A program made the translations under genes and the position numbers. From a virus, in IMG/VR virus record IMGVR_UViG_3300001471_000004: a stretch of DNA of 46,994 nt. One strand, 5' to 3'. A model generated the notes under the pieces. That model saw nothing but the letters and a program-made list of their open reading frames with translations. It was not told the DNA's origin and ran no database searches. Numbering within the stretch: the first letter of the stretch is position 1; the number at the start of each line of letters is the position of its first letter. Shown here one piece after another: positions 939 to 46,994 of the stretch.

Positions 939-945
939 GGTGCCC

Positions 946-2607: not shown

Positions 2608-2631
2608 CCACGAGGAACCTCTGCAACGAGG

Positions 2632-18162: not shown

Positions 18163-18192
18163 GCCCCTGGCCGAAAGGTTGGGGGCTTTTTT
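18163..18192 (+). terminator. Rho-independent terminator
   Basis: GCCCCTGGCC-GAAA-GGTTGGGGGC forms a 10-bp stem (three G-U pairs) with a GAAA loop, followed by TTTTTT. An upstream AAA run could allow bidirectional function. Confidence 0.75.
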
Positions 18193-18199
18193 CGTGGGT

Positions 18200-28016: not shown

Positions 28017-28408
28017 CAACCCCCACCCTCGGCGATTTGATTGACAAATATAAAGAGCTTGAGACCTACGTCGAGGCTGAAGACGCCGCCTACGGCGCAG
28101 CGATGAAACCCTACAAGGATGCCATCAACCTGATCAAAAGCGCCGTGCTGGCCGAGCTTCAGCGCACTGGGCAGCAGAATGCGAAGTCCGAGAACGGCGG
28201 CACTGCTTATCAACAGACGAGCATGAGTGTCAAGGTTGACAACCGCGAGCAGTTCCTCGACTTTATCTCGCAACAGGGGCGATGGGACATGCTTGACGCG
28301 GGCGCCTTGAAAGAGCCCGTCAAGGACTGGCTTGATAAGAACAACGGCGTCGAGCCGCCCGGTCTCAAAGTTTCGTATTTCACCAAGTGCAACATTCGGA
28401 GATCGTGA
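28013..28408 (+). CDS. Replication/recombination-module protein, 131 aa (possibly Gp157-like)
   Basis: ATG 28013 with a GGAG SD and an ATGA overlap. The 40 upstream codons of the tracked ORF overlap the previous gene. An N-terminal coiled coil is followed by a beta-rich part. The family assignment is weak. Confidence 0.5.
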   Translation: MTTPTLGDLIDKYKELETYVEAEDAAYGAAMKPYKDAINLIKSAVLAELQRTGQQNAKSENGGTAYQQTSMSVKVDNREQFLDFISQQGRWDMLDAGALKEPVKDWLDKNNGVEPPGLKVSYFTKCNIRRS

Positions 28409-29598
28409 TGAACACTCCCCTACCTCGCCGACGAATTGTCGACGATGCCACCAGCGGCCTCGGTTCGACGCGCGGCCCGCACCTCTCGATCCGCGGTGGT
28501 CGCTTCCGGCTGATCGCCGCGACGGAGGTGTTGCTCGACACGCACTATGTCGACATCATCATTGTGGACGCCAACCGGAACTCGGCGCGGGTCTACTTCG
28601 AGGGCGACTTTGCCGACAACACCGACGAGCCCCCGGCATGTTTCAGCGATAACGGCACCGGACCTTCGACGCAGTCCATGTCGCCGCAGTCGACAACATG
28701 CGCTATCTGCCCTCATAATGTCCGGGGCTCCGACCAGACGTTCACCGGCAAGGCCACGACAGCCTGCAGCAACCGAAAAAAGCTCGCCTTTATTCTCCCC
28801 GACGACCAGTCGTGCACGGTCTACGAATTCCAGATCCCGCCTGCCAGCTTGACCGGGTTGCGCACCTACGGCGATTGGGTGGGCGCTCAGATGTGCCCCC
28901 ATCGTAATGCGCCGGCCGACTTCGCCGACTTCGTCACCCGCGTCAGCTTCGATCCGGCACGCCAGTTCGTGCTGGCGTTCCAGGCGGTGTCCTGGGCCGA
29001 TGACGAGCGCACCCTGCAGATGCTCGAATACATTGTGCAAAATAACCTGTCAGACGCGGCGGTCGGCCGCAATGACGTCGCCCACGATCCAGCCTTCGTC
29101 GCGCAAATGATCGCCGCTCGCAGGCAGGCATCAGCGGGCGCCTTGGGAAGCAACCCACCCTCCCCCGCACTGCAGTCCGGGCAACAACAACAACTCCCAC
29201 CTCGCCAGGCAGCCCCAGCCCCCCAGCCCCTGCCTGCCGGCGCCCCGGCCGCGCCCCGAGCCCCGCAGGCTCCCAGGCGCGGCCGGGGACCTGCGAAGGC
29301 ACAGGCTCAGCTGCCGCCCGCCTCCCCTTCGCCGGCAGCACCGTTTATGGCCCCGGCTGCTGCCCAACCTGTGGCCTTCCCGTCGACGCCCGCGGCAACC
29401 GCACCGATCGCACACGCGCCCCCTGCGCAGGCTGTATCGAGTACTGACGGCATCCCTGCGTTTCTCCAGCGCAGTGCCGACAACACGCCGCCCGCGCCCA
29501 CCCCGCCTCGGTTCGGCATCGGCACCCCGCCCGCGCCGCCTGCCGCGATCGGTGAGGCGTTGGCGCAGGCGATGAACCTGCCGACGAGACGAGGATGA
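28408..29598 (+). CDS. Cys4-containing protein with a roughly 170-aa Pro/Ala-rich tail, 396 aa (possible ssDNA-binding or annealing protein)
   Basis: ATG 28408 with a GGAG SD. The four Cys lie in PACFSD...CAIC...TACS. The C-terminal half is low complexity (APAPQPLPAGAPAAPRAPQAP...). The functional guess rests on position in the replication module. Confidence 0.45.
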   Translation: MNTPLPRRRIVDDATSGLGSTRGPHLSIRGGRFRLIAATEVLLDTHYVDIIIVDANRNSARVYFEGDFADNTDEPPACFSDNGTGPSTQSMSPQSTTCAICPHNVRGSDQTFTGKATTACSNRKKLAFILPDDQSCTVYEFQIPPASLTGLRTYGDWVGAQMCPHRNAPADFADFVTRVSFDPARQFVLAFQAVSWADDERTLQMLEYIVQNNLSDAAVGRNDVAHDPAFVAQMIAARRQASAGALGSNPPSPALQSGQQQQLPPRQAAPAPQPLPAGAPAAPRAPQAPRRGRGPAKAQAQLPPASPSPAAPFMAPAAAQPVAFPSTPAATAPIAHAPPAQAVSSTDGIPAFLQRSADNTPPAPTPPRFGIGTPPAPPAAIGEALAQAMNLPTRRG

Positions 29599-29912: not shown

Positions 29913-32739
29913 GGGCTACTACTGCGCGGTCGTCTTTGACAGTCCTAACCCGAAGCCGGGCGTCGACTTCCCGCGACAAAAGTTCTGCTCGACGATAGAG
30001 GAACTGACCGATGTCATATTGGCAAGCGACAAAGTCGGCACGACGGTATTTCATGGCTGCGCAGCGTACGTCGATCCGCGCGTCGCAAAACCCCGATCCC
30101 AAGTCAACGTCCGCGCGTGTCGGTCCCTTTGGCTTGATGTCGACGCAGGATCCGATAAAGCCTATCCCGACGCGCGCGCCGCCGCGCAATCCGTCGCCAA
30201 TTTTTGTGCTCGTGTGGGTCTGCCTGTGCCTGTCTTTGTCGGTAGCGGCACTGGCATTCACTGTTACTGGCCGCTTGCTGTCGAGCTTGGTCCCGCCGAT
30301 TGGAATGTCTACGCTAATGGACTTAAAGCCCTTTGCACCGTAGAAGGACTGAAAGCCGACCCGTCGCGAACGAGCGACATATCGAGCATCCTGCGACCAC
30401 CAGGGACTTACCACCGAAAGAACGGAGAGAACCTTGTCCAGGTCGACCCACGCAGCCTACGCCGCTTTGATCTCGGCACTCTTAGCACTCTCTGTGCCGC
30501 TGCTCGGGTACAGCCTGCTCATCAGCGACCAGATCGACGAAGCGTACCGACAGGTTCGATCCTCGAACGAATTGTCGGCGATGCAAGCTACAGCGCCGTA
30601 TACGCTGACGATATCGCAGACGAATGTGGTCAGCTTAACCATTTCCGTATCACAGGCAATTTACACGAACCTCTATGGTACGCAGGTCTTGGCGTGCTCG
30701 GGTTCTGCCACGACGGCGACGTACGTGCTCATGAATGGTCGGCAAGAGATTATACAGGCTACAGCGCCGGGGGGACCTCTTTCAAGCTTGACCGCGCTCG
30801 ACAACTCACCGGCGCCACCACCTGCGCAAAATTCCACGACGTCAACCCAGGCGTCTGCCCAAGGTGCCCCCACTTCGGCCGGATCAAATCTCCCATCGCT
30901 TTGGGGTTCCGACATCCAGAGCCTGCAATTCAGTTCACCACCGTTGCGCCGCCTCTCACCGAAACCGAAGACGGCGGGTTGCAACTGCCACCCCCACCAT
31001 CACCGTTCATATGGTCGGCGAGAAATCAGCTTTGCATCACCCAGGAAGACAACAATGGCGGCAGCATCGCGACTGTGGTCAGCGAGCATCCAGTCTACCT
31101 CGAAGGGGTGCAGACCGGAGAGCTCGAACGCTCGTCGTTCAGCTATCTGTTCAGGAAATTCCTGCCGCACGAAGGCTGGTCCGACGTCATCATTGACGCG
31201 AAGACACTCCATAGCTCGGCCGGCATTTCTGAGATGTTCGGCAAAGGCGTCGTCGTGCATGATGCTAAAGCTTTTTTGAAGTATGCGAGGCACGCAGTGG
31301 ATGAATATCATGCCGAGGAAGTCACCGAGACCCGCTACGATCAGTTCGGGTGGAAAAACGAGAATTCATCGTTTCTATTCGGGAAAATGCTTTACACATC
31401 AGTGGGACCGGTCGAAAGCATTGGTGCCAAAGAAGTACAAGCTCGATCGCAGTGGCTCGGGCCTCGTGCCCGCGGTTCCGTACAAGCATGGACCGAGGCC
31501 GCAGATAGTCTCTTTGCTGCGGACATGGAAGCGATATCAAGCGTGGTACTCGCCTCGTTCGCCGCTCCACTTATGCGGTTTCAGTCGGCCGAAGAAGGCG
31601 GCGCTATCATCCATCTCTTTACGCCGGGGAGCGGGCAGGGCAAGACAACCGCACTCATGGGTGCCTGGACAGTATGGGGCACGAAGGAAGGTCTTACGCT
31701 CACCAACGAGGATACCCGCGTCTCGAAGCCAATAATGATTGGCACGCTCGGCAACCTGCCGGTGATTTACGACGAGCTGCGCGACAAGGATCCCGAGGTG
31801 ATCAAGCGCATGGTGGTGATGTTCACCGAAGGCCGCGATCGCATGCGCGGCACGGTCGACGGCGGCATACGTCACACCAAGGCCAATTGGCAGACAATCA
31901 TGCTGTCGGCTGCGAACCTCTCGCTGATCGACCAGCTGCAGACGGACGGCGTCGACGCGCCGGCCTTTCGGGTCATGGAGCTTTCGACCGAGCTCCCCGC
32001 CAACATCGACAAGAAAAAGGGTGATCAGCTTAAAAAGGTCATGGCCGAGAACGCGGGTCACGCGGGCGACGCGTATCTGCGCTATCTGCTCAATCCCGAC
32101 GTGTTGGCGTGGACGAAAGCGGCGTTGGAGAAGTGGACGCAAGACATTTGGGATGTAACGCGTGCGGACAGCGCGCATCGGTTTCGCGTACGCGCTGTCG
32201 GCGCGATTGCCGTCGCCGCTGCACTTGTCAACAAGCTCGGCATCCTGCATTTCCAGACCAACCGGATCGTCGAGTGGCTCATTGACGAGATCGGCCAGGG
32301 GCGCCATCAAGGCACGGTGAGCGCTGTTACGTCGATCGACGCGGCGATCGGCGCGCTCGGCAACTTCATCAACGAGCATTACGGCGAGACCGTCGTCGTC
32401 CCCGACAAGTATCAGCCAAAGCGGCACATGGTGCCGATCTTAAAGCCTCACAACAAGTTGTCGGTGCGCTACGAGATCGCGCCAGCTCGTGTGTTCATTT
32501 CGTGGAACGTGTTCAACGAGTGGGCGATCAGGCGTCAGATGTCGGCGCGTACCATCGTCGAGCAGTTGCTCGACGCACAGATCGTGGTGTCTAAGAAGCG
32601 CGCCTGTACGCTCGGCGCCGGCACCGACATCCCTGGCGCCCAGATACCCTGCATCGAAGTGAACGCGTTGCACCCCGCGATGAGCGGGCTCGTGACGACG
32701 GTCACGGAACTTCGAGGGGCACAAACTGTTGCGGAATAA
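29863..32739 (+). CDS. Bifunctional primase-polymerase (AEP) / SF3 helicase, 958 aa
   Basis: AEP motifs are LWLDVDAG (DxD) and GSGTGIHCYW (sGxGxH). Walker A is TPGSGQGKTT and Walker B is PVIYDELRD. Confidence 0.8.
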   Translation: MMRDETLAFLACVLPAEGYYCAVVFDSPNPKPGVDFPRQKFCSTIEELTDVILASDKVGTTVFHGCAAYVDPRVAKPRSQVNVRACRSLWLDVDAGSDKAYPDARAAAQSVANFCARVGLPVPVFVGSGTGIHCYWPLAVELGPADWNVYANGLKALCTVEGLKADPSRTSDISSILRPPGTYHRKNGENLVQVDPRSLRRFDLGTLSTLCAAARVQPAHQRPDRRSVPTGSILERIVGDASYSAVYADDIADECGQLNHFRITGNLHEPLWYAGLGVLGFCHDGDVRAHEWSARDYTGYSAGGTSFKLDRARQLTGATTCAKFHDVNPGVCPRCPHFGRIKSPIALGFRHPEPAIQFTTVAPPLTETEDGGLQLPPPPSPFIWSARNQLCITQEDNNGGSIATVVSEHPVYLEGVQTGELERSSFSYLFRKFLPHEGWSDVIIDAKTLHSSAGISEMFGKGVVVHDAKAFLKYARHAVDEYHAEEVTETRYDQFGWKNENSSFLFGKMLYTSVGPVESIGAKEVQARSQWLGPRARGSVQAWTEAADSLFAADMEAISSVVLASFAAPLMRFQSAEEGGAIIHLFTPGSGQGKTTALMGAWTVWGTKEGLTLTNEDTRVSKPIMIGTLGNLPVIYDELRDKDPEVIKRMVVMFTEGRDRMRGTVDGGIRHTKANWQTIMLSAANLSLIDQLQTDGVDAPAFRVMELSTELPANIDKKKGDQLKKVMAENAGHAGDAYLRYLLNPDVLAWTKAALEKWTQDIWDVTRADSAHRFRVRAVGAIAVAAALVNKLGILHFQTNRIVEWLIDEIGQGRHQGTVSAVTSIDAAIGALGNFINEHYGETVVVPDKYQPKRHMVPILKPHNKLSVRYEIAPARVFISWNVFNEWAIRRQMSARTIVEQLLDAQIVVSKKRACTLGAGTDIPGAQIPCIEVNALHPAMSGLVTTVTELRGAQTVAE

Positions 32740-32752
32740 GCGGGAGAAGATC

Positions 32753-32998
32753 ATGAGCGAGCGGGGTGGATTATCGTTTCTTGGAAAGCAGCAGGTTCAC
32801 GTCTTGAGTGTTGCTGCTAATGCCACTATTGGCATTCCAATCTATCCGCAGGACCGAGCGCAAGAGCGCGTCTGTGATTCACTGGTGAAGCGTGGCTTGC
32901 TCAAACTAGACGGTCTGAAAAAGAAATACGTGACGCCGTGCTACCACATCACGGATGGTGGCCGCCGTATATATAACGAAGTTAAACCGGCGAGTTGA
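32753..32998 (+). CDS. Hypothetical protein, 81 aa (possibly winged-helix)
   Basis: ATG 32753 with GGGAG 6 nt upstream. The earlier tracked start lies inside the primase gene. Confidence 0.5.
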   Translation: MSERGGLSFLGKQQVHVLSVAANATIGIPIYPQDRAQERVCDSLVKRGLLKLDGLKKKYVTPCYHITDGGRRIYNEVKPAS

Positions 32999-33024
32999 TG
33001 CACCATGACTGCGGAGGGAACGTG

Positions 33025-33246
33025 ATGTGTGAGTGGAAGCCGATAAGTGAGCCGCCGACAACCAGTAAAGAAGGTGCGTCGGTGCGTGTACTTGGCGTTA
33101 TCAAAGGTGGTCATCATGTCTTTGCTTCCTACACGCCCTATTATCTCGGACATGCCGATGAGGCCAAAATGCTCTGGACTTGCGAGCATTTTGGCTGGGC
33201 GGAAAAGCCTACACATTGGCGACCGCTCACGCAGCCATCGCACTAA
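33025..33246 (+). CDS. DUF551-like protein, 73 aa
   Basis: ATG 33025 with GGAGGG 6 nt upstream (alternative ATG at 32998). It begins MCEWKPISEPP and ends PTHWRPLTQP, as DUF551 proteins do. Confidence 0.6.
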   Translation: MCEWKPISEPPTTSKEGASVRVLGVIKGGHHVFASYTPYYLGHADEAKMLWTCEHFGWAEKPTHWRPLTQPSH

Positions 33247-33253
33247 CGCGGCA

Positions 33254-33487
33254 TCACAGCGCGTCGATCGTAGTCACCTGTTGCGGTGATGGTAGTCGCG
33301 CCGCTGTCTCGTTCACCAGCCGCAATAACGCCGGCAACCGATCGAGCGTCTGCCGGCGAAGGCGCGTCTCGTCGACCTTCGCTTGTGTCGCAAGCACCGT
33401 CGCGATCACGGATGTTTTGGCGCGGATCGTAGGACCAAACGCACCATCTGCGCCAGCGTCTCCCGGATTGAGCTCCAGGTCGAGCAC
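33254..33487 (-). CDS. Candidate terminal small protein of the late arm, 77 aa
   Basis: This is the non-overlapping 3' part of tracked ORF 33254-33967. It has a GTG at 33487, about 70% G/C at third codon positions, and non-repetitive sequence. No clear SD. Confidence 0.35.
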   Translation of the reverse strand: MLDLELNPGDAGADGAFGPTIRAKTSVIATVLATQAKVDETRLRRQTLDRLPALLRLVNETAARLPSPQQVTTIDAL

Positions 33488-33516
33488 GTTCTCGGCGTTG
33501 GCCAGTGCCTTCTCGG

Positions 33517-34857
33517 TTACGCGCTCAAGCTGAGTGGAATTGTCGAGAACTCCATGCCCGTCGCGTAGCCCATCCGCTGCAAATCGGGCAGCTGCTTCTT
33601 CAGACGCCGTCCGATATCCGTCCGGTACATCGGGGAGTTGGGCATGATCAATGTCTTTAAGCGACGGTATACTGTGTCGGTCGCCGTCTTCACGTCGTGC
33701 CCCGTGCCCGACATCACCAGGACGTAGTCCCCCGCCGTCACCATCATGGGCACGACCGCGAAACTGTCTTTGATCTTGATCGGCGCCATGCCCATCATCA
33801 TCTCGCAAGGATGAACGTGATCCCACGTCTCCTGCTTGAGCCCGTAGATCGGTACGCCGATCACTTCCTTCCTCGTCAAGTGCGAGTACGGATAGTCGGG
33901 TATGGAGACGACTACGCCAGCCGCCACTCCGTTCATCACCCAGTTGTGTGCGTCCTTGCCGTGCCATAGGTTGTCAAGCCACTCGACGTGATCGCCCTCG
34001 TGGAGCGCCTGCTGGATGTTGAACGTCGGCCAGCCGGGGCGCATGGTGAATTCCAGAGGCCACGGCGTACCATTGTCGTCGATTATACAATTGACGTCAA
34101 CGTACCCGCAGTAGTGGGCGCGGGCGAGCTCGTCTGCGAGCGGCGCCAAGACTTTGCGGGCGAGCTTCGAGGTGCGCACGTAGCGAAGAATAGTGCCCTG
34201 CTCGCCGGTGGCCACCCCCATGTCATCGTTCATTAGCTTTTTGAATTCAAAGTTCTCGCACCAGCCGGCGTTGAAGCCGCCAGGGCCGAACCAGGCCCCC
34301 ACGGCCATCTCGATGCCAGGCATGAATTCTTGCAGGATGAACGGCGACTTGAGCTTGCCGAGCTTCTTCCACCGCTGCAGCATGTAAATCATGTCGGCTG
34401 GCGTCTTCGAGCAGTACGACAGCGCCTTGTCGGCGTCGCCTGACGGCTTCGACACAAACCGCCGATCCTCGCGCTTGACGTAGGCGATGGCCTGATCGTA
34501 GTCGTTGAATTCCTTATAGGCGGGCACTTCGATGCCGTGTTTTTTGAGCACCTTCATGCCGACCGTGCGATCGAGCTCCCATTTCGCCGTCTCGATCGAG
34601 GCGCCGACCGCCTTCACCCCTTCGTCGCGCCAGCGCTGATCGAGATCGTAGGTGTAAAACGTGTTGTCGGTCATGAAGACGAGGTGCGCCCACCGCACCC
34701 ACTGACGATAATCGTCGACCAGCGTCACGAGCCCTTTGCCGATGTGCTTGGTCTTCTCGGTCTTGCGGACGGCTAGCCGCACCTCGTGGCCGTCGCGCTG
34801 AGCGCGGAGCGCGAAGTCGAGGCCGTTACCTTGGGGATCTATGATGAGAACACGCAT
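33517..34857 (-). CDS. PurD (GAR synthetase)-like ATP-grasp ligase, 446 aa
   Basis: MRVLIIDPQGNGLDFALRAQ is a pre-ATP-grasp N-domain. RFVSKPSGDADK and ILQEFMPGIEMAV are ATP-grasp B-domain/hinge elements. YCGYVDVNCIIDDNGTPWPLEFTMRPG is the C-domain, but the canonical PurD FGDPE motif is absent. Confidence 0.7.
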   Translation of the reverse strand: MRVLIIDPQGNGLDFALRAQRDGHEVRLAVRKTEKTKHIGKGLVTLVDDYRQWVRWAHLVFMTDNTFYTYDLDQRWRDEGVKAVGASIETAKWELDRTVGMKVLKKHGIEVPAYKEFNDYDQAIAYVKREDRRFVSKPSGDADKALSYCSKTPADMIYMLQRWKKLGKLKSPFILQEFMPGIEMAVGAWFGPGGFNAGWCENFEFKKLMNDDMGVATGEQGTILRYVRTSKLARKVLAPLADELARAHYCGYVDVNCIIDDNGTPWPLEFTMRPGWPTFNIQQALHEGDHVEWLDNLWHGKDAHNWVMNGVAAGVVVSIPDYPYSHLTRKEVIGVPIYGLKQETWDHVHPCEMMMGMAPIKIKDSFAVVPMMVTAGDYVLVMSGTGHDVKTATDTVYRRLKTLIMPNSPMYRTDIGRRLKKQLPDLQRMGYATGMEFSTIPLSLSA

Positions 34858-35036
34858 TTAGGGCACTGGATGTCAGAGCTGTGGTCCGAGACCTTCCACC
34901 CCTGCCGCCGCATGTCGGCGATGAATAAATGCGGGTGCACCGGATCGCTGGCTTCAAGCGTGTTCTTTTCGCCGCAGCGCGAGCACGTGATCTGCAGCAT
35001 CGGCTTTTTACCCGGCTCACTCATGTTCTGCGCCAT
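34839..35036 (-). CDS. Small Zn-ribbon protein, about 65 aa
   Basis: Candidate starts at ATG 35036 or 35024. CSRC...CPKC pairs. Its 3' end overlaps the ATP-grasp start by 19 nt. Confidence 0.5.
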   Translation of the reverse strand: MAQNMSEPGKKPMLQITCSRCGEKNTLEASDPVHPHLFIADMRRQGWKVSDHSSDIQCPKCVFSS

Positions 35037-35346
35037 TGCCCGCGCCGGGCGCTCGAAAGGGCTGCTCGGAACCGGGTAAAGGGGCGTTCGACAACTGGTT
35101 GATGGCGTTCTCGGCTGCGGTAATGGCGGTGTCCTGCTCGTCGAGATGTGCGTCCCACTTGCTGAATACGTCATCCCCGCGCTTCGCCAGCGCAGACAGT
35201 CGACCAGCGAGCTTGTCGGCGCGAGCCTCCAGCGCCTTGACCGCGGCCGGCGCGGCGGTGGCGATCTCCTGTAATTTGCTCATCTGTCGTTCCTGTTCGC
35301 GTAGCCGGTTAAGCAGCGTCAACCCATTGAGCGTCAATACGCGCAT
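35017..35346 (-). CDS. Coiled-coil protein, 109 aa
   Basis: TAATG overlap with the upstream gene. Helical Ala/Glu/Leu-rich sequence. Confidence 0.55.
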   Translation of the reverse strand: MRVLTLNGLTLLNRLREQERQMSKLQEIATAAPAAVKALEARADKLAGRLSALAKRGDDVFSKWDAHLDEQDTAITAAENAINQLSNAPLPGSEQPFRAPGAGNGAEHE

Positions 35347-35528
35347 TATTTGGAAGCGAGGTGTTCCTGCAGTGTACGCTCTGCGCGCAACGCCGCCGAC
35401 TTATACTTTTCGTAGCAGCCCTCGGGGCAGAATGGCAGCTTCTCGGCCGTCGCAATACCCAGTGGCCGCAGCTTCCAGTAACCGGACTTCCCGCAGTAAG
35501 CGCAGTCGTTGATCGGGGGCTTTGCCAT
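35346..35528 (-). CDS. Small Zn-ribbon protein, 60 aa
   Basis: CAYC...CPEGC. TGATG overlap with the 923-aa gene. Confidence 0.55.
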   Translation of the reverse strand: MAKPPINDCAYCGKSGYWKLRPLGIATAEKLPFCPEGCYEKYKSAALRAERTLQEHLASK

Positions 35529-38299
35529 CAGTCATACAGCCTTTGTTGTGCGCGGTCGTGTCGCTCTTTGGTCTTCCACTGGCTGCCGTGAATTTTTTTC
35601 ATCATATCCTCGTACCCTTCCGGGTCGGTTAGGTAGCGGGGCGCGGTGCGGGCGCCGAGCAGTTGCTCGCCGAGCGACACATTGCTATCGTCTTTTCTGC
35701 CCTTCGCCAAGTTGCGCAGCGAGATCGGGCCAAAATTGTCGGTCACGTAGTTCCAGAATTGAGTGTACCACGGCGGCGCTTCCTCGGCTCGCGAAAAATT
35801 CGGGTCGCCCCGCCAGTCGGAATTCCAGAACAGGTCCCACACCTGCCGCGGTCCGGTGCCGACCTTGTTGCCGATCTCCTGTTGCGGGTTTTCGTACATC
35901 CCGAAGACGTCCTTCTCGGGACCGGGCATCAGCAGGCGCTCGGGCTCGCCCGTGGCTGCGTCGATGCCGCCTGTCTTCGGCGCCATCAGGTCTTGCGCGC
36001 TCTCCGGCCCTTCGCCCGTTTTCCACAGCTGATACATCATCGACAGTGTGCCGTAGACGATCGGCATGGCGATGGCCATGTCCATCTTTTGTGTCCAGCG
36101 CCCGTCGTTCGGGGCGATGCCGGTGGGCCTTTTAAAAGGTGCGCGAACGACGTCACGGGCAGCGCCGCCGAGCATCCGCACGTCCTGGCCGACCGACCAC
36201 GACCACGACCGCAGCGCGACGGTGCCGAGTTGCTTAATAAACTTGTTCATAAATATGTTGTCTTGCACCATCTCGCCGAAGCGGTCGTCCATGCTGTCCC
36301 AAATCTGGCGCGCCGCCTTGGTGACTTCCTCGGGCGCGGCCTGTGGGTGCACCTTCATCCAGTTGGCGAGGTTTTCTTTAAAGGCGCCCGCTTTGACGGC
36401 CGGGATGTATTTGTCGAACAGCGGCGCAGCGATCGTGTCCATGATCCGCCCGACGTGCCGCGCGCCGACCTTGGCGGCGCCGACCGGGCTTCCCATCGCC
36501 TCGGCGCGATCGGCCGCAAGCTGAAGCTTCAGCGCACCACGCTTGAACGCTTTCCAGTAGTCTCCCCCTTTGGAGAATTCATATTCAGGCGCATAATCAC
36601 GGCCGGCGACGCGCCCGCCCGCCTTCGTCAGTTCATCAACGATGCCCTCAAGCTCTCTCGTGCCGGGGCGCAGGCCGAGGTATACTTCTTTGACCGTGCC
36701 ACCCTGACGCGCATAGTTGACGGGCGCGAACGGCGTCTTCGCCACCTGCTTGATAGCCTCGATCGGCTTGCCCTTGCGCGCGAGATAGATCGCCTGGCTT
36801 AACGAGTTGTCGAGCGCGGCCTTCGCGACCGTCATTGTGTGGTAGCCCGACAGCGACAGTTCGAGGCCGGTGATCGCGTTCGCGGTATGGCGCACAGCGT
36901 CGTAGCCCTGCTGCAAGGCCGGGTCGAGCTCGGCGATGCCGCGCGAGATGTAGTTATTATAGACGCGTGCCCAGCCTTCGGGCGCGTACGCGACCTGCGG
37001 GCCGGCCGGCGTCGTTCGCTTCCCAAGGCGCCCCTTTAACTCCACCTCGCCGGGCAGCTGTTTGCCGGGGGTGCGGTAGTTGACGGTGCCGAGATTGCGC
37101 GCGGTGTCGAACACTTCGTTCTGCGCGATGAAGCGGTCGGCGTTCGTCACGTACCGAATGGTGGCGGCGATGGGATCGGTCGTCAGAGGTTCGAGCCCTG
37201 CGGCCAAGCCATCAGCGACGGTCGGAAGCGTACGCCCTTTGGTGAAGCCACCGCTGCCTTGCTTACCGAAGCCGGCGAGAAACTGCTGCGCCTTCTGTGG
37301 GTCTTTCCACATGTGGGGATAATAATCCTCTATAAAGCTCAGCTGCGCGGTCGACGGCAGCGCCTGGAGCTTCGCCATGCGCTTGTCAAAGGCGCCCTTC
37401 ATCGTGTTGGCCAAGTCCTGCAGCGCCGGGTCTTTCATCTGGAGCCCGGAGAATTTGCTGGAGCGACCCTCCACGTAGTCGATAAAATTGAGGCGATCCT
37501 GCGTCGGCAGCGCGTTTACGGTCTTCCATGCTGGTTCGAGAGCCGCGGTGGTCTTGGCGCTATCACGCGCTGCGGTGCCCGTCGCTTCGCGGATCGCAGC
37601 CGCGGCGTTCTGCGCGCTGGCATCAACAGTCTCGGGGCTCGCGATATTCTCGATCACCTTACCGGCGTTGCGCGCGGCGTCGAGGGCTGGCGTCGCCAAG
37701 CCCCCTGCCTGCAACCCTTTCCACCGTTCTGTAAGGTCATCCCACCCCATTTCTTTGGTAAATTTCTGTACGCCTTCGGGCTTAGCACTTAGCGGGGTAA
37801 TCTCGCCGCGCTGAAGGTCGCCCATAAGGTCGTAATTATGGGGCCCGAATTTGGGTGCTCCTGTTTCGGGGGCGACCCTTTCGGGTTTTCCACCTCCACC
37901 CATCATCATAGCGATGTCGCCACCTGCTTTAATTTCCGCGCTGCCGATCGCGCGCGCGTTCTCAGCGTCTTCTTCGCTCATGGAGCCTTTGCGTTGCACG
38001 TTTTGCGAAAGGTCCGTAGCCGCGCTGGCGATCTCACCGGGCTTCTTCACCACGTCGATCGCGCCCTTGACCGCTGCCATCGGCATCTGGCTGACGACAC
38101 CCCACACGTTCGAGCGCCCTTCAGGCGTCGTCAGGAGTTGCGAACCTTTGGGCAGATCGCCGGATGGCAAGAGCGAGCGGCCCTTGGTGTCCTGCGTCGC
38201 CGGCAGATGGCTCACCACTTTCCAGGCGTCGTCTACGCGAGCGGCTGGCGTAATAGTGATGGGATGAGGTGCTTGGCCCTGCCAAAAGTCGTCAGGCAT
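35528..38299 (-). CDS. Large internal virion/ejection-type protein, 923 aa
   Basis: ATG 38299 (a TGATG overlap, AGGTGA SD). Assigned from size and position after the low-complexity proteins. No catalytic motif recognised. Confidence 0.55.
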   Translation of the reverse strand: MPDDFWQGQAPHPITITPAARVDDAWKVVSHLPATQDTKGRSLLPSGDLPKGSQLLTTPEGRSNVWGVVSQMPMAAVKGAIDVVKKPGEIASAATDLSQNVQRKGSMSEEDAENARAIGSAEIKAGGDIAMMMGGGGKPERVAPETGAPKFGPHNYDLMGDLQRGEITPLSAKPEGVQKFTKEMGWDDLTERWKGLQAGGLATPALDAARNAGKVIENIASPETVDASAQNAAAAIREATGTAARDSAKTTAALEPAWKTVNALPTQDRLNFIDYVEGRSSKFSGLQMKDPALQDLANTMKGAFDKRMAKLQALPSTAQLSFIEDYYPHMWKDPQKAQQFLAGFGKQGSGGFTKGRTLPTVADGLAAGLEPLTTDPIAATIRYVTNADRFIAQNEVFDTARNLGTVNYRTPGKQLPGEVELKGRLGKRTTPAGPQVAYAPEGWARVYNNYISRGIAELDPALQQGYDAVRHTANAITGLELSLSGYHTMTVAKAALDNSLSQAIYLARKGKPIEAIKQVAKTPFAPVNYARQGGTVKEVYLGLRPGTRELEGIVDELTKAGGRVAGRDYAPEYEFSKGGDYWKAFKRGALKLQLAADRAEAMGSPVGAAKVGARHVGRIMDTIAAPLFDKYIPAVKAGAFKENLANWMKVHPQAAPEEVTKAARQIWDSMDDRFGEMVQDNIFMNKFIKQLGTVALRSWSWSVGQDVRMLGGAARDVVRAPFKRPTGIAPNDGRWTQKMDMAIAMPIVYGTLSMMYQLWKTGEGPESAQDLMAPKTGGIDAATGEPERLLMPGPEKDVFGMYENPQQEIGNKVGTGPRQVWDLFWNSDWRGDPNFSRAEEAPPWYTQFWNYVTDNFGPISLRNLAKGRKDDSNVSLGEQLLGARTAPRYLTDPEGYEDMMKKIHGSQWKTKERHDRAQQRLYD

Positions 38300-39603
38300 C
38301 ACTTCACCTGTTCGGGCTTACCGTCTTTGAGTGTCCACTTCTGGCCGTTCTGGAAGGTTGTTACCATGCCCTCTTTGAGCGCCTGCAGGGCTTCGGGCGG
38401 GGGTTGACCAGGCGAGCCGCTCGGCGCGCGATCGTCGGTCTTGGGCTGTGGCGTCGCGGACGTGCCCCCGGTCGGCGTTGAGCGACCAGCCGCCGCTCGC
38501 AGCTGCTCTAATCCCGTGTTATAGTCCTTGTCCGCTTGGTCGAGCAGCGCCTTGCGCTCCGCGGGCTTCAACGTGTTGGCAGATGAGTACGCCTGAATGC
38601 GCGTGCGAACGTGCTTATCCTGCTGGTCGAGTAGCGCCCGCGCTTCGGCGAGCCCTTGCTTGCCCTTGCTCTCTTGCACCCGCTGAATGGCAGCCTGTTT
38701 CTGCTGGTCGAGACGCTGGTACGTGCTGTCCTCTCGAAATTTAAGCGCGTCTTCGAGCCGCTGCTCGCGCTGCTGGAATTCCGACTTGCGCTCGCCGAGC
38801 GCTGCGGCGCGGTCTTGGCTTTGGGTATTGGCGATCGTCTCGCGCGATTGCCGATTACCGGATGCAATATCCTCGCGCCCCGCAACATTTTCCTCGTTGC
38901 GCGAATTGCGTCCCTGCTCGGCGATCAAAAACTGCTGCTCGCGCTGCTGAAGCGCCTGCTCGCGGATTTGAAGGCTGATGCCCTGCCACTCCTGTTTCGA
39001 CTGCTGCGACATCATCGGCAGGAACTGATTGACGGCTTCCGCTATCACGTCAGGCGGCAAGTTCGGATTGGCCTGCTTGACCGCAGCCACCAGCTGCCGC
39101 CAGTCGAGCGCGCCGCCTTGTCCGCCACCCTGTCCGCCGCCGGGCATTCCACCAGGTTGACCAAGCTGCATCGGGGGACCGGGTGCACCACCAGGCATCG
39201 GCGGACGCGGCATCCCGCCAGGAGGCATCCCCGGAGCCCCACCTTGCGGCATCATCGGGCGCGGGGGCATACCCTGCGGCATTCCACCCGGAGGCGGCAT
39301 ACCGCCGCCAGGAGCCCCGCCCATAGGCGGTTGCTGGCCGGGTCGCATCATCGGCTGCGAGGGCTGTCCCGGCATGGGCGGCTGCGCCTGCGGCCCGACA
39401 TTCGACGTATTGCCCTGCCCCCCGCTGCCACTGGCGAGCATCTGCAGCGCGTTGCCCATGGCGACCTTTGCCAGCGCCGAACGCTTGGCATCCTGCGCCG
39501 CTACGTCGGACACCTGGATCTGGTCTTCGGTCAGACGCCCCTTCTGGTAGCCGGGGTATTCGGCCGACAGACCAGAGAGCGCGCCGGAGAGGCTGAAGGG
39601 CAT
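38299..39603 (-). CDS. Internal virion-type protein with a Pro/Gly/Met-rich low-complexity region and a Gln/Glu/Arg coiled coil, 434 aa
   Basis: ATG 39603 (a TAATG overlap). The longer tracked N-terminus overlaps the upstream gene in another frame. Repeats read GGMPPPGGMPQGMPPRPMMPQGGAPGMPPGGMPRPPMPGG. Confidence 0.55.
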   Translation of the reverse strand: MPFSLSGALSGLSAEYPGYQKGRLTEDQIQVSDVAAQDAKRSALAKVAMGNALQMLASGSGGQGNTSNVGPQAQPPMPGQPSQPMMRPGQQPPMGGAPGGGMPPPGGMPQGMPPRPMMPQGGAPGMPPGGMPRPPMPGGAPGPPMQLGQPGGMPGGGQGGGQGGALDWRQLVAAVKQANPNLPPDVIAEAVNQFLPMMSQQSKQEWQGISLQIREQALQQREQQFLIAEQGRNSRNEENVAGREDIASGNRQSRETIANTQSQDRAAALGERKSEFQQREQRLEDALKFREDSTYQRLDQQKQAAIQRVQESKGKQGLAEARALLDQQDKHVRTRIQAYSSANTLKPAERKALLDQADKDYNTGLEQLRAAAGRSTPTGGTSATPQPKTDDRAPSGSPGQPPPEALQALKEGMVTTFQNGQKWTLKDGKPEQVK

Positions 39604-40589
39604 TAGTAGAGGCCCCCAAGCCCACCTGTGAACTGCGACGAGCTTGTAGGCGTCGGGGCGATCCCACCAAAACCGCCGCCCCCGCCGCCAAACCAGCTGC
39701 CTGGTGACATCCCGGAAAGACCCGCAAGGCTCGAGCCGAGATTGTTGCCAAGCGTCTGCTGCTGGTTGAACGTCGAATTCGCCTGGTTGAGCTGCTGCCC
39801 GAACAGACTGGTGTTGGAGTTTTGCTGTCCAGTCGCGCCCGACAGGTATTGCAGGTAGTCGGTGATCTGCTGCTGCGGCAGCACCGAGGCCGACTGTCCG
39901 AACTGGCCGGTCTGGCCGAGCGTGTTCAGCGCGTTGGCATTGATGCCCTGGAATGTGTTGTATGGCAGCGCCGAGCCCGCCGTCATCTGGTTGAGCCCGG
40001 TGTTGGTCGCCCCGCCGATCTGACTGAGCAGGCTTCCCGCGGCGCCCGCGCCCTGCGTCGCGCGCCCAAGCTGTTGGTTCTGCCACGCGAGATTGAAATT
40101 CTGGTTCGACTGATCGGCGACGCCGGCACCATAAGGCGTGCCCTGCACCCCGTATTGCCCGGCGATGGCGTTCGTCTGCTGCTGGTTTTGGTTTTGCAGT
40201 TGCGAGTAAAGCGCATTCTGCGGGTCGAAGCCGAGCGACAAAAGGGATTGTACGTCAGGCAACGCGCTCAGCGCGTTGCCGGCGATGTTCGCTCCGCTGT
40301 TGAAGCCCGCCTGCCCCGTTGCGTTCGCCCCTTGCTGGTAGCCCGGCGCGTAAGGATTGGCGACCGTCTGCTGCGCGATCTGCTGATACTGCGGCAAGAG
40401 GCTGCCGGCGACGTTGTAATTGCTCAAGCCCCCGATGCCCGAGTAGGCGTTGCTGTCAGCGCCCGACTGGTTCTGAAACTGATATCCTTGCGGCGACTGG
40501 ACGTTCTGTGAAGGGGTGCCATTTGCGAGACCGTAGATCGCGGCGCCGCCGCTCGCGAGTGCGCCAAGCCCACCGATTGTCAGACCCAT
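39603..40589 (-). CDS. Gln/Asn/Gly-rich protein with an N-terminal hydrophobic segment, 328 aa (internal virion-type)
   Basis: ATG 40589 with a GGAGA SD. The N-terminus reads GLTIGGLGALASGGAAIYGL; the remainder is Q/N/G-rich low complexity. Confidence 0.55.
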   Translation of the reverse strand: MGLTIGGLGALASGGAAIYGLANGTPSQNVQSPQGYQFQNQSGADSNAYSGIGGLSNYNVAGSLLPQYQQIAQQTVANPYAPGYQQGANATGQAGFNSGANIAGNALSALPDVQSLLSLGFDPQNALYSQLQNQNQQQTNAIAGQYGVQGTPYGAGVADQSNQNFNLAWQNQQLGRATQGAGAAGSLLSQIGGATNTGLNQMTAGSALPYNTFQGINANALNTLGQTGQFGQSASVLPQQQITDYLQYLSGATGQQNSNTSLFGQQLNQANSTFNQQQTLGNNLGSSLAGLSGMSPGSWFGGGGGGFGGIAPTPTSSSQFTGGLGGLY

Positions 40590-40590
40590 C

Positions 40591-41148
40591 TCAGTCTCCA
40601 ATCCACTTGCCGTGCACCACGTCTTCGGCGACGTAACCGAGGCGCTTGAATAGCACATTCACCTTGCGGCCGCCACTATTGGCGAAGTGCGCCTTTTCCG
40701 CCACCGCGATCTTCTGGACGCCCGCCGACTTCAGAAATCGCTCATTCTCGCGGAACAGTTTTAGCCCGAGCAGCCCGAAGCGATACGCTGGGTGCAGCCA
40801 GTACATATCGACGACACCGAAGCGCGTCGAGCGCTTGTGCAGGTTCGGGCCGATGATATTGAAAATGTAGCCCACTAGCGCCGGGCCGTCGCGCACGGTC
40901 ACGATTTGCAGGATGCCGAGCCGATCAAGGTCGAAATAGCGGTCCCAATCAGGATCGAGCGGCGCCCGGTCACGATCAACCGCGAGCTCGGCGTGATGCT
41001 TTTTAAACAGCGCGGGAAGCTCGCGCGCGATGACGCCGAGCCGCTGTCGCTGGATCGTGACGCCCCGGTACGCGACCGGCTGGCTAAGCGGTTCGAGGGC
41101 CGATGGTGGGTTGCTGAGGCGCGGTTTCTTTACGTGTCGTGTTTGCAT
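40591..41148 (-). CDS. GNAT-family N-acetyltransferase, 185 aa
   Basis: ATG 41148 with GGGAG 5 nt upstream. GNAT-like core: LVGYIFNII...VVDMYWLHPAYRFGLLGLKLFRENERFLKSAGVQKIAV. Confidence 0.6.
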   Translation of the reverse strand: MQTRHVKKPRLSNPPSALEPLSQPVAYRGVTIQRQRLGVIARELPALFKKHHAELAVDRDRAPLDPDWDRYFDLDRLGILQIVTVRDGPALVGYIFNIIGPNLHKRSTRFGVVDMYWLHPAYRFGLLGLKLFRENERFLKSAGVQKIAVAEKAHFANSGGRKVNVLFKRLGYVAEDVVHGKWIGD

Positions 41149-41222
41149 CGACACTCCCACTCGGCGGCTTCATGCTGCTGTCGACCGGCTGCGCGGAGCG
41201 GTCCTTCATGCCGGCGTGCATA

Positions 41223-42906: not shown

Positions 42907-44619
42907 CTAGTTGGCGTTTACGTTGTCCTTGTAGGCCAGGATTTGGACAAGGCCATTCGCCGCCCCGTTGATGCTGACATAGATCGTAGCTGTCTCCAAC
43001 TTCATCCACCCTGTTGCGGTGGTGACCGCCGTATTGAGCCCAAGCGGCGGCGGGTTTGGCGTTTCAAGGCTTTCGTACGTGTTATTCGGCGCCGCGCACG
43101 TTGCTGCCGCCGAAGCGGCGTCCGCCCCTACCAGGACGAGCTCGACATCGGTCGCGGTCGACGGCGCCCACAAAGGCGCCACCCCGGACGTACCCGCAAT
43201 CGTCTCTGCCGCCCATGTAGGTGTTGTCGACGTGGTTCCACAGCTGGTTCCACCATTCAAATGCTGCGCTACGACGGGGAGGGTCGAGAGGTTCGCCCCA
43301 CCGTTCACGTACTGGGTAACCGCACCCGTCGTGCGAAAACCGTAGAAGTTGGCCGATCCGTTCGTCTTGCTAGCACCAAGGCGGCACAAATAAATATACC
43401 CGCTCGGCATCGTCGGTGACGTCGCAGAGGCACTGTCAAGCCCGGCCGTCGTCGTGCCGTTGCTGATCAAGTAGTGATTGTACATCGTGTTGTTGCCGAG
43501 CGACACGGCATCGAGACCGTTGGCGCCGTTGATGGTGTCGTTGATCGCGACCGAGACACCGGTCACATAGATTGGCACGTTGCCGGTCGGATTGATGAGC
43601 ACCGCCGAACCGGCCGTGATGTCGATCTTGGTGTTCGGCGTACCCGTGTCGTTGTAGATCGCTAACCCAACCGCGCCGCACAGCGGCGTCGGGTTGACCA
43701 CTGCCGTGCCATTCGCGCGCATGTAGTTGGTGATCGCCCAATTGCCGAGCCCACCACTGCTCTTGCCGAGATAAACCGCAACGGCGGTGTCGCCCGCCGC
43801 AGCGGCGATATTAGCCGCCCCTGGCGTCTGGATGCAGCCACCAACCGTCGCGCAACTCGTCTGGTTCCAGGTGATCGTGAGCGGCGACGTGAACGTGACC
43901 TGATAGTTGGGGTACGTCGTCGTCGCCGTCTGACCGAAAGACGTGATCGTGGTCGAGCCAGTGATACTGACGTTGTGTGATGAGACGGTGCCCAGATCGG
44001 TGGTCGTCGCCGAAGCGAGATTAGTGAGTGGCCCGACACCGCCATATTGCACGCCCCCGCAATTCGTACACTCGAACTCGCTGCCATCCCATTGGGCAAT
44101 GACAATCTGGTTAGCCTGTATCTCGCCGCCAATCATCGGCACAGGCCCGTTCGGCCCGATATTATAAAAACTCGGCGGACAAGTCCCGGTCGAACACGCG
44201 GGGTTTGTGGTCGCGGTGACGGTCTGCGACGCAACTTCAAGCGTGGTCACACCTGTGTTCGTCAGCGACGCGACGAAGATCACTGTGTACCCGGTAACGA
44301 GCGTAAAACCCGTAGGCGCGGGCGAAGCGAAGGTGATTGCGTTGGCTGTGCCCGTCACCGCCCCGCCGAAGAACACGGATGATCCGCCCCCGGAAGGCGG
44401 GATTGGCGTCGTCAGGCCGAGCAGCGCCGTGATGTCGTTATTTGCGCCTGCTGCAGCCGCGTTGCCGAGACAGACAACCAGCGCGTTATAGTTCGCCATC
44501 ACCTGACTTGCGTCGGCGGTCGTGCCGTTCTGCAAATTAAAAGGCAAGCTGCAAGTAACGCCCGCCGAAGCCGCGGACACCCACAGCGAAAATATAAACC
44601 CAACAATCCAGCGCTTCAT
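42907..44619 (-). CDS. Tail-fibre-like protein, 570 aa, with Sec-type N-terminus
   Basis: ATG 44619 with a GAGGG SD. N-terminus MKRWIVGFIFSLWVSAASA/G. It carries the fibre-type motif ANNDITALLGLTTPIPPSGGG and a Cys-rich segment. Confidence 0.7.
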   Translation of the reverse strand: MKRWIVGFIFSLWVSAASAGVTCSLPFNLQNGTTADASQVMANYNALVVCLGNAAAAGANNDITALLGLTTPIPPSGGGSSVFFGGAVTGTANAITFASPAPTGFTLVTGYTVIFVASLTNTGVTTLEVASQTVTATTNPACSTGTCPPSFYNIGPNGPVPMIGGEIQANQIVIAQWDGSEFECTNCGGVQYGGVGPLTNLASATTTDLGTVSSHNVSITGSTTITSFGQTATTTYPNYQVTFTSPLTITWNQTSCATVGGCIQTPGAANIAAAAGDTAVAVYLGKSSGGLGNWAITNYMRANGTAVVNPTPLCGAVGLAIYNDTGTPNTKIDITAGSAVLINPTGNVPIYVTGVSVAINDTINGANGLDAVSLGNNTMYNHYLISNGTTTAGLDSASATSPTMPSGYIYLCRLGASKTNGSANFYGFRTTGAVTQYVNGGANLSTLPVVAQHLNGGTSCGTTSTTPTWAAETIAGTSGVAPLWAPSTATDVELVLVGADAASAAATCAAPNNTYESLETPNPPPLGLNTAVTTATGWMKLETATIYVSINGAANGLVQILAYKDNVNAN

Positions 44620-44626
44620 GGTGCCC

Positions 44627-46288: not shown

Positions 46289-46312
46289 CCACGAGGAACC
46301 TCTGCAACGAGG

Positions 46313-46994
46313 TTAGAACTTGTATTCGAGCGATGCGCGTACGAGGTTCTCGGCGTTGAAGCTCGCGGTCGCCGCGTTCGCCACGCCGACTGACGCCGAA
46401 CCATAGTTCAGGTAACGATACCCGATGTCGAGAATGATCTTCGGCGCGATGACGAACTTCGCACCAGCCCCTGTCTCGAAGCCCGTGGCGAAGCCGCGCT
46501 CGACGATGCCGGCCGCGACATAGAGGGATATCAGGTCGGCCGTCAGGTTGCTCGGCACGACAACCGGCGCCTGCGTGCCGAAGATGCCGGACAGCGTCCC
46601 GCCGACCTGCGCCTCCTGGTAAGCGAGCACACCGCCTTCGTTGTTCGTCACCCCGCCCACGTTGACCTGGTCGCCAACGCCGGCCTCGATCGCGAGGAAC
46701 GTGGTGCCGTTCCAATACTGCCAACCCCCGTTGACGAAGGGGATCGCGCCGGCCGCGAAGACGGAACCGGATAGCCCGCTGCCGATGATGTCGGCGTTCG
46801 TGCCGTTGCCCGCGAAGCCACCGCCGACATACCAGCCAGTGCAGTAGACCGTCGTGCACCCCGAAGTCGCGGAGGGCGGCGTCTTGGTCACCACCTGCGC
46901 GCTGGCCGGCGTAATCGCGGCCAGCAGCCATGACAGCGCAACGGCGAGGAACAGAAGCTGCGCGACGTTGCCCACACTGCCGTCACGGTGATAG
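46313..46994 (-). CDS. Omp25/Omp31-like beta-barrel ORF, 5'-truncated by the window end (same gene as 2632-3537)
   Basis: Identical to 2632-3313. The internal GTG at 46975 corresponds to 3294. Confidence 0.6.
   Translation of the reverse strand, partial: YHRDGSVGNVAQLLFLAVALSWLLAAITPASAQVVTKTPPSATSGCTTVYCTGWYVGGGFAGNGTNADIIGSGLSGSVFAAGAIPFVNGGWQYWNGTTFLAIEAGVGDQVNVGGVTNNEGGVLAYQEAQVGGTLSGIFGTQAPVVVPSNLTADLISLYVAAGIVERGFATGFETGAGAKFVIAPKIILDIGYRYLNYGSASVGVANAATASFNAENLVRASLEYKF

Follow-up and report, generated by a model that had tools for sequence, protein, structure and literature searches.

The closest described relative of the enzyme treated here is PurD, the phosphoribosylamine-glycine ligase or glycinamide-ribonucleotide (GAR) synthetase (EC 6.3.4.13; TIGR00877; Protein Data Bank (PDB) entries 2yw2, 1gso and 2qk4). 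The enzyme itself is a 446-aa ATP-grasp ligase encoded in a viral DNA of 46,994 nucleotides, IMG/VR record IMGVR_UViG_3300001471_000004; this whole stretch is referred to below as the window. PurK, PurT and biotin carboxylase show that the same scaffold can serve varied small carboxylates (bicarbonate, formate) and amine acceptors, and none of them is known from phage virion modules.

Two further groups of phage proteins provide the frame for the genomic context of the ligase. According to the prediction of Iyer et al. (2017, PMC5512222), polyvalent proteins bearing ART-PolyVal or LPD23 domains are packaged and are injected along with the DNA. The T4 Alt ADP-ribosyltransferase, the N4 virion RNA polymerase and P1 DarB are encoded late, among structural genes, and act right after injection (PMC5512222). 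The window ligase differs from these in its chemistry, which would be ATP-dependent amide ligation, and its packaging is a prediction.

Our analyses indicate that the ligase is not a GAR synthetase, that it is optional cargo of an internal-protein module at the end of the late arm, and that its gene appears to share its 3' part with a second gene, here named orfX. ATP-grasp ligases, injected polyvalent proteins and overprinted genes are each of an already known kind. What appears to be new is a PurD-like ligase as the partner of, or an insert in, virion-internal proteins, together with its dual coding with orfX; literature searches found no description of a PurD-like ligase in an ejection module. 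The text of PMC5512222 uses 'ATP-grasp' only in a discussion of RNA ligases, and a PurD-like ATP-grasp enzyme would therefore appear to be a new effector type.

A PurD-like enzyme and its family

The gene under study is:
33517-34857, minus strand: PurD-like ATP-grasp ligase of 446 aa, from the clade with the motif EFT...RxG[WY]PT (Pfam, NCBIfam, AlphaFold2 and Foldseek, alignment)

A PurD-like domain order and PurD-like motifs had been noted in the initial annotation of the window, and profile and structure searches bear this out. Pfam GARS_A was matched at 40.1 bits (cutoff 27; E = 4.4e-10), GARS_C under its own cutoff, and the best sequence match in the PDB was Aquifex PurD (E = 3e-15). The AlphaFold2 (AF2) model, made with 39 homologues, reached a predicted local distance difference test score (pLDDT) of 88.9 and a predicted template modelling score (pTM) of 0.88, and has the four-domain N-B-A-C fold of PurD. 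Foldseek against the PDB returned PurD entries at all of ranks 1 to 15 (template modelling score (TM) 0.65-0.77, E = 1e-26 to 1e-20, about 20% identity), followed by PurK and biotin carboxylase (TM 0.49-0.61, 11-16% identity). A search of BFVD gave no close viral structural relative, and PADLOC gave no match for the ligase, its cellular relative (see below) or its neighbours.

Motifs were compared in an alignment of 11 sequences that included authentic Salmonella PurD, in which K137, E183, K206, E269, R273, R412 and D414 are invariant. The ATP-grasp core is kept in the ligase (K137, K144, the hinge Q176-E177-F178, E183, K206, E269, R273 and a C-terminal R-x-D-I-G), so that it shares with PurD the ATP-binding Lys and Glu, the Mg-binding Glu and the Arg that stabilises the acyl-phosphate (R273, equivalent to R292 of human GARS). 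Acyl-phosphate chemistry is presumably common to both. The B-loop GLAAGK of PurD aligns with SGDA-DK, with the Gly and the Lys (K144) kept and the other residues different. The canonical E-x-N motif for Mg2+ reads E269-F-T271, and its Thr is invariant in close homologues and in the cellular clade; E-x-T is a family-specific variant of the motif.

The residues that hold the PurD substrates are largely lost. Arg13 and Glu14 in the GGREH loop of human GARS contact the phosphate and ribose of phosphoribosylamine (PRA), and glycine is bound by Asp217, Arg292, Asp295 and Glu297 (PMC2978367). Salmonella PurD GNGGREHA aligns with DPQGNGLD in the ligase (GGREH to QGNGL), with no Arg or Glu there. The equivalents of D217, R292, D295 and E297 are E204, R273, W276 and T278, the Arg alone being identical; across an alignment of 39 close homologues W276 shows no variation, and T278 is kept in at least 90% of the sequences. 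DHKR is likewise changed to EFKK, and the canonical EFNCRFGDPE is replaced by EFTMRPGWPT, which accounts for the FGDPE segment that had been reported as missing. Structure search and pocket comparison together thus give a PurD fold with an incomplete set of PRA- and glycine-binding residues.

Membership was also assessed with the TIGR00877 equivalog, for which the cutoff is 288 bits; the ligase scored 92.0, its cellular relative 99.1 and a further homologue (P0224) 87.3, and all three fail. Because of this failure, the lost GGREH loop and the replacement of the Asp and Glu residues that bind glycine, the ligase is an uncharacterised PurD-like enzyme and not a GAR synthetase. It is probably active through an acyl-phosphate mechanism, but neither its carboxylate nor its nucleophile would be that of PurD (glycine and PRA, respectively). 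The PurD-type four-domain fold of the model hints at a small-molecule rather than a peptide substrate.

Inteins (LAGLIDADG or Hint) interrupt many members of the family, among them P0125, P0130, P0187, P0193 and P0250, the last of which holds two. Three insertion sites were found, before T217, before T222 and after E-F-T271, all within two signature loops. Inteins are usually placed in functionally critical motifs, and the sites were counted as suggestive of the functional importance of these loops.

The family is large. Clustered at 50% identity, it comprises 1,645 clusters at E<1e-3 and 247 at E<1e-30, and more than 120 clusters (90% identity) exceed 60% identity to the query, many of them on 40-46-kb contigs. 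The window has no DNA similarity to cultured phages. Homologues carry the Joint Genome Institute (JGI) label phosphoribosylamine--glycine ligase. Surveys report viral purD/GART genes as auxiliary metabolic genes (AMGs), and one of them reports the family as enriched in viruses (PMC11097641, PMC11360552).

A cellular clade (L091-L162, for example L108, L123 and L154) is 31-34% identical to the ligase, about 428 aa long and marked by the motif PLEFT[AS]RFGYPT. Its members are found on megabase-sized contigs from Acidobacteriota, Woeseiaceae, Parvularculaceae and other lineages. These homologues are monocistronic, with neighbours that, by reading of their sequences, are ValS, BamD-like and response-regulator genes; none of the neighbour clusters read resembled a pur gene.

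Some members carry additional segments. Two distant ones, P0224 (about 425-533) and P0235 (about 415-523), have a C-terminal extension of about 110 aa with a DxDxT...T...K...DD pattern reminiscent of HAD phosphatases; such a putative HAD-like fusion would likewise hint at a small-molecule substrate, and at a phosphorylated one. The N-terminal extensions of P0191 and P0128 show no similarity to the internal proteins of the module.

The internal-protein module and its optional cargo

The ligase gene lies downstream of the following genes:
40591-41160, minus strand: 189-aa weak GNAT-like open reading frame (ORF) at the head of the module
39603-40658, minus strand: 351-aa conserved protein of the same module, kept in relatives
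38299-39603, minus strand: 434-aa internal protein, rich in Gly, Pro, Gln and Met and with a coiled coil, coupled by TAATG and TGATG overlaps
35528-38299, minus strand: 923-aa internal protein of a polyvalent-protein-like family, its ATG at 38299 coupled by TGATG to the upstream gene
35346-35528, minus strand: first Zn-ribbon ORF, 60 aa, CxxC...CxxxC (CAYCG...CPEGC), TGATG/TAATG-coupled and found in the window genome only
35017-35346, minus strand: 109-aa coiled-coil ORF, an accessory gene of a subclade
34839-35036, minus strand: second Zn-ribbon ORF (CSRCG...CPKC), 65 aa or 61 aa from the ATG at 35024, a lineage-specific accessory gene

Every junction from the 923-aa gene through the three small ORFs to the ligase was re-read on the minus strand, and the chain of stop/start overlaps described earlier stands. 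The TGA of the 923-aa gene (35530-35528) overlaps the ATG of the 60-aa ORF as TGATG, and the TAA of the latter overlaps the ATG of the coiled-coil ORF as TAATG. The second Zn-ribbon ORF overlaps the coiled-coil ORF by 20 nt in its 65-aa form or 8 nt in its 61-aa form, and is itself overlapped by the ligase gene by 19 nt. Upstream, the 351-aa, 434-aa and 923-aa genes are coupled by TAATG and TGATG overlaps.

The window copy of the 923-aa protein has no match in Pfam, PHROGs, NCBIfam or PADLOC. Its 92 homologues are conserved over residues ~200-924 and variable in the N-terminal part, where ART-PolyVal (P0294, 52 bits, cutoff 31), LPD23 (P0337, 53 bits, cutoff 27) and, in one member, LysM were found. 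The AF2 model (pLDDT 75) is disordered over residues 1-198 and has an all-helical core with no fold match in the PDB. Profile searches gave no family match for the 434-aa and 351-aa proteins; the position of the former upstream of the 923-aa protein is conserved in relatives.

Among loci of the 923-aa family with enough downstream sequence (n = 68), the ligase follows the 923-aa homologue in 43 and is lacking in 25, and it is thus an optional cargo of the internal-protein module. Its position was analysed in 26 distinct loci holding both genes. The ligase ATG overlaps the stop codon of the internal-protein gene by 4 nt, with nothing between them, in 14, and about nine have an insert of 440-510 nt that holds a 91-111-aa ORF and in some cases also a 61-87-aa ORF bearing two CxxC motifs. 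Such translational coupling, conserved across relatives, upholds the tight linkage of the ligase with virion-internal genes that had been proposed.

The same surveys do not support the earlier suggestion that the small genes and the ligase form a cassette. By tblastn in 80 IMG/VR loci with the ligase, the 60-aa ORF had no homologue (nor any family match), the second Zn-ribbon ORF had one in two loci, and the coiled-coil ORF in six (L005, L006, L041, L053, L065 and L078; 26-35% identity). By position, ORFs of 61-87 aa with two CxxC motifs occur in 6 of 25 relatives. The 60-aa ORF is therefore unique and the coiled-coil/Zn-ribbon pair confined to a subclade. Since the ligase abuts the internal-protein gene in 14 of the 26 loci, the Zn-ribbon and coiled-coil ORFs are lineage-specific accessory inserts. 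The conserved partners of the ligase are the polyvalent-type 923-aa protein upstream and the overlapping orfX downstream.

Matches of the second Zn-ribbon ORF were below threshold: Zn_ribbon_Com at 14.4 bits (cutoff 22.9; E = 0.026) and PHROG 6417, 'translational regulator', at E = 4.8e-4, with no aligned stretch of the PHROG matches passing by itself. RNA at the ligase start folds no better than shuffled sequences (z = +1.0). Membership in the graspetide or RimK type of peptide modifiers is not supported either: the top folds are PurD, PurK and biotin carboxylase, no RimK or microviridin ligase ranks close to them, and the small neighbouring ORFs are not conserved.

Another lineage provides a physical connection between the ligase and a head protein. 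P0249 (1236 aa), identical on three contigs and located between the TerL and capsid genes of a 65-kb phage, joins a portal, a ligase domain (motif EWTAGRPGYP) and Phage_Mu_F in one ORF. Its relative L165 (966 aa) is a portal-MuF protein with no ligase, 59% identical to P0249 (58% in the portal part and 74% in the MuF part). Because one of the two has the ligase and the other does not, the ligase is a module that can be inserted on a head-internal scaffold. Portal- and MuF-fused architectures are taken by Iyer et al. (PMC5512222) as evidence for packaging and injection. Likeness to the polyvalent systems is therefore found on several counts: the ligase directly follows a family bearing ART-PolyVal or LPD23, one homologue is fused to portal and MuF, and its presence is optional and exchangeable, as is that of polyvalent effector domains. 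Unlike these domains, the window ligase is a separate gene and not part of a large protein.

The ORF at the head of the module matches Pfam Acetyltransf_1 below the cutoff (E = 0.005). In distant phage contigs (L084, L086, L087 and L090) its homologues are located 4-5 kb ahead of the ligase, and a GNAT is annotated at the equivalent place in MW202796.1. It may represent a second, possible acyl-transfer enzyme in the module of the ligase.

orfX and the end of the late arm

Downstream, the late arm ends with a gene that lies partly inside the ligase gene:
33254-33967, minus strand: orfX, 237 aa, last gene of the late arm, ATG at 33967; its C-terminal ~87 aa form a helical domain
33517-33967, minus strand: dual-coding segment, with the GARS_C-like C-terminal domain of the ligase in frame 0 and the N-terminal part of orfX in frame -1

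A possible 77-aa ORF starting with GTG at 33487 had been listed here. An ORF is indeed present, but its real extent is greater, the 77 codons being the tail of the conserved 237-aa orfX. Its N-terminal 150 codons overlap the last 150 codons of the ligase in the -1 frame.

Across the overlap the -1 frame has no stop in any of 40 distinct relatives, where synonymous resampling predicts 1-7 stops per sequence. Control regions behave differently: the -1 frame in the upstream 296 ligase codons has 2-21 stops, and the +1 frame within the overlap has 5-17. For the N-terminal 95 codons of orfX, 0 stops were observed against 89 expected over the 40 sequences. The summed log10 P(0) is -21 for 17 members less than 70% identical, whose lineages are not fully independent. 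Fourteen relatives with no downstream orfX have 2-22 stops in the 150-codon overlap and 1-14 in the 95-codon extension; six further loci, at first assigned to this group, are borderline or lie on truncated contigs.

The start codon is conserved as well. In 36 of the 40 relatives the ATG of orfX (xxA-TGG) is found at either of two homologous positions, against a background of 31% A-ending codons for Glu, Gln and Lys. All six sequences of the window subclade have the rare CTA before TGG, a codon that makes up 6% of Leu codons. Identical synonymous codons are in mild excess over ligase residues 331-410 (0.55 versus about 0.46), only in orfX-bearing genomes. Stop avoidance beyond the codon-usage expectation and the conserved start codon together argue, on statistically robust grounds, that orfX is a conserved overprinted gene.

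Overprinted, dual-coding genes are known in phages from Rz/Rz1 of lambda, and overprinted regions are typically compositionally biased. Like that pair, orfX is an example of a second frame being used within a longer, conserved gene. It is unlike the pair in that only its N-terminal 150 codons are embedded and 87 codons extend beyond the ligase gene, in that relatives have standalone, non-overlapping versions, and in having no link to lysis.

Close relatives that lack the ligase have an orfX homologue of 126-149 aa directly after the 923-aa gene, with an ATGA or GTGA overlap and no detectable relic of a ligase. These standalone homologues share with orfX a PS[IL]xx[IL]DxxxLP motif and the helical C-terminal domain. 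The first ~95 residues of orfX, rich in Arg, Gly and Asp, occur only in ligase-bearing genomes and are encoded entirely inside the ligase gene; in some homologues this region contains an AT-hook-like RGRPPK. No match to orfX was found in the PDB, Pfam, PHROGs or NCBIfam, and protein databases hold only four fragments of it among 5.8 billion proteins.

In one locus, L068 (7231-8205), the ligase has no overlapping frame, and orfX stands by itself 480 nt further downstream. The other frame of the 5' part of this orfX still spells out a 41-aa relic of the C-terminus of an older ligase, and the arrangement reads as the footprint of a gene replacement. With the relic still readable, L068 was dropped as independent evidence for a standalone orfX, and the relic-free relatives lacking the ligase were used.

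The 745-aa P0128, a predicted database protein with a Gly/Ala/Ser-rich N-terminal extension of 396 aa, stays in the ligase frame until about 10 codons beyond the ATG of orfX, from where it is read in the orfX frame. This switch may be an indel, an assembly error or real. Programmed -1 frameshifting from ligase to orfX was also considered; no slippery heptamer was seen by eye at the junction, and the conserved ATG argues for independent initiation. Six loci with no overlapping orfX (L011, L012, L013, L016, L049 and L079) encode a weakly similar 149-aa protein in the early arm beside the primase gene (E about 1e-5 to the profile of the orfX C-terminal domain), for example on the opposite strand at 10017-10463 of L012.

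The stop codon of orfX closes the late arm of the genome. The window is a circular phage genome of 43,681 bp plus 3.3 kb of assembly wrap-around, its first 200 nt being repeated at 43,681. The main landmarks are:
late arm, minus strand: headed by a ParB-like ORF and then the large terminase (14859-16838), wraps the window end and closes at 33254, with the ligase chain at its extreme end
12618-14852, minus strand: portal, late arm
7755-9095, minus strand: major capsid protein, late arm
5454-6347, minus strand: SU10-type adaptor, late arm
early arm, plus strand: PolA, PD-(D/E)XK nuclease, SNF2 helicase and DUF927 primase-helicase, ending at 33246

Several other features of the genome were recorded. 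The terminal duplication left by the assembly makes 1-3313 equal to 43682-46994, so that a 553-aa ORF at 946-2607 occurs again at 44627-46288. An 83-aa DUF551-like ORF of the early arm converges with orfX, with 7 nt between the stops (33246-33254); a simple scan of this gap found no terminator-like hairpin, and a promoter and terminator scan of 32600-35700 found nothing above chance. A low-GC island at 18000-19000, most notably at 18497-18764 (0.46 versus about 0.60), separates the divergent late and early arms. In it a TTTCCATATGGCA-like palindromic box occurs three times, twice in direct and once in inverted orientation, and these TTTCCATATGGCA-like boxes may be operator or origin sites. Directly upstream of the large terminase, a 157-aa ORF (16835-17308, minus strand) matches PHROG 111, 'DNA methyltransferase', over profile positions 63-201 of 345, and occupies the slot expected for a small terminase. 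A 403-aa early protein (28387-29598, plus strand) with a long Pro/Ala-rich C-terminal half matches PHROG 27714, of unknown function, and is a neighbour of the primase in relatives too.

Predicted role of the ligase

The reading we prefer, tentatively and at somewhat less than an even chance, is that the ligase is a late-made, probably packaged and delivered amide ligase, carried as cargo by the ejection module and acting on substrates other than those of PurD. It would be made late through translational coupling to the polyvalent-type 923-aa internal protein of this ~43.7-kb podophage lineage, would most likely be packaged in the head and would be delivered along with the DNA. Given ATP, it would activate a carboxylate other than glycine as an acyl-phosphate, and the nucleophile that takes over the acyl group would not be PRA; the target is predicted to be a small, possibly phosphorylated, metabolite more likely than a protein.

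Several points weigh against this proposal. That the gene closes a late operon is no proof of packaging, and the portal-MuF fusion belongs to a different phage lineage, its ligase only about 33% identical. The predicted activity comes from conservation alone, and the Asn of the ExN motif for Mg2+ is a Thr in the ligase. The cellular clade stands alone beside housekeeping genes in Acidobacteriota and Woeseiaceae, so that the family is not intrinsically a conflict effector. The HAD-like extensions of P0224 and P0235 have no statistical support in Pfam or PDB sequence searches. No cultured relative was found; one metagenomic phage genome has a 48%-identical ligase, which is unannotated there.

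A broader form of the proposal, which we regard as doubtful, would make the EFT/RxG[WY]PT ligases a new class of effectors delivered by the virion. Injected beside polyvalent-type proteins, they would at entry spend host ATP on building or capping a small nucleotide-like molecule through amide ligation, with orfX, the N-terminal extension of which is confined to ligase-bearing genomes, as a co-evolved partner.

Among the alternatives, an unlikely one that fares best is modification during assembly. The ligase would then act late in the producing cell and not be injected, placing an amide-linked group onto a virion component, either ahead of packaging or while it proceeds; candidates are the internal proteins, the N-terminal extension of orfX (acidic and basic) and the DNA. 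Late-arm expression and the coupling to structural genes are as expected under this alternative, as is the confinement of the Arg/Gly/Asp-rich ~95 residues of orfX to ligase-bearing genomes. The weak GNAT-like ORF heading the same module also fits, and its combination with the ligase resembles the pairing of acyl-transfer enzymes on protein substrates known from RimI/J/L and RimK. However, protein side chains are not the targets of the closest folds (PurD, PurK and biotin carboxylase), whose substrates are small molecules or cofactors, and no match of the RimK, TTL or graspetide type stood near the top of the Foldseek ranking. About 14 relatives have the ligase with no overlapping orfX, so that orfX is not an obligatory substrate, and no DNA-hypermodification genes were present among the early-arm ORFs scanned.

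Less likely again is a non-packaged late 'moron' that alters small-molecule metabolism in the producing cell, for example by making or destroying a nucleotide-like compound, the operon end being a permissive insertion site. Optional presence (43 of 68 loci), insertion between the internal-protein gene and orfX, the variable small ORFs that share this slot and the solitary cellular homologues are all compatible with such a gene. Such a gene would not lead one to expect the striking conservation, in diverged genomes, of the 4-nt overlap with the internal-protein gene, and the in-frame portal-ligase-MuF fusion is hard to explain for a cytoplasmic enzyme.

That the gene is a genuine AMG, a divergent functional GAR synthetase boosting host purine synthesis, we consider improbable. 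The full four-domain PurD-like fold, the conserved core with its C-terminal R-x-D-I-G, the JGI naming and the published reports of viral purD/GART AMGs (PMC11097641, PMC11360552) speak for it, and the solitary cellular homologues could in principle be the PurD of their hosts. Against this stand the TIGR00877 scores (92 bits, and 99 for the cellular clade, versus a cutoff of 288), the absence of the PRA/phosphate loop (R13, E14) and the change of two of the four glycine-binding residues to Trp and Thr. The window ORFs that were scanned include no other pur gene, in agreement with the initial annotation, and the gene lies in the late virion operon and not in the early metabolic arm. PRA, with a half-life of about 5 s, is believed to be passed on by PurF (PMC2978367); with so short-lived a substrate, a lone late PurD would gain little. 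Moreover, some close relatives do without the ligase, and another lineage has it fused to portal and MuF. Failure against TIGR00877, the lost pocket residues and the linkage to virion genes make a repurposed ligase the better reading than a metabolic helper, as had been suggested from the start.

In phage Mu, Com activates translation of Mom, and a similar arrangement, with the Zn-ribbon protein as translational activator of a potentially toxic modification enzyme, is highly improbable here: the 19-nt overlap of the Zn-ribbon ORF with the start of the ligase and its weak Zn_ribbon_Com (E=0.026) and PHROG 6417 (E=4.8e-4) matches speak for it, but the Pfam matches are under the curated cutoffs, the PHROG matches contain no self-sufficient aligned stretch, the RNA structure at the ligase start is ordinary, and most relatives lack the Zn-ribbon ORF and have the ligase coupled straight to the internal-protein gene.

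These results bear on how the family is counted and studied. Pipelines and surveys call this non-PurD family phosphoribosylamine-glycine ligase, and counts of purine AMGs may be inflated in consequence. orfX shows that gene callers miss conserved phage genes, and the cellular clade suggests an unrecognised ATP-grasp enzyme in cellular metabolism. The ligase adds a candidate ATP-dependent amide ligase to the enzymes of phage ejection and internal-protein modules and offers a well-defined biochemical target. If the ligases do form a class of virion-delivered effectors, many of the 'viral purD/GART AMGs' of metagenome surveys would be mis-assigned, and the purpose of the enzymes might be to pre-empt host defence or to jump-start infection.

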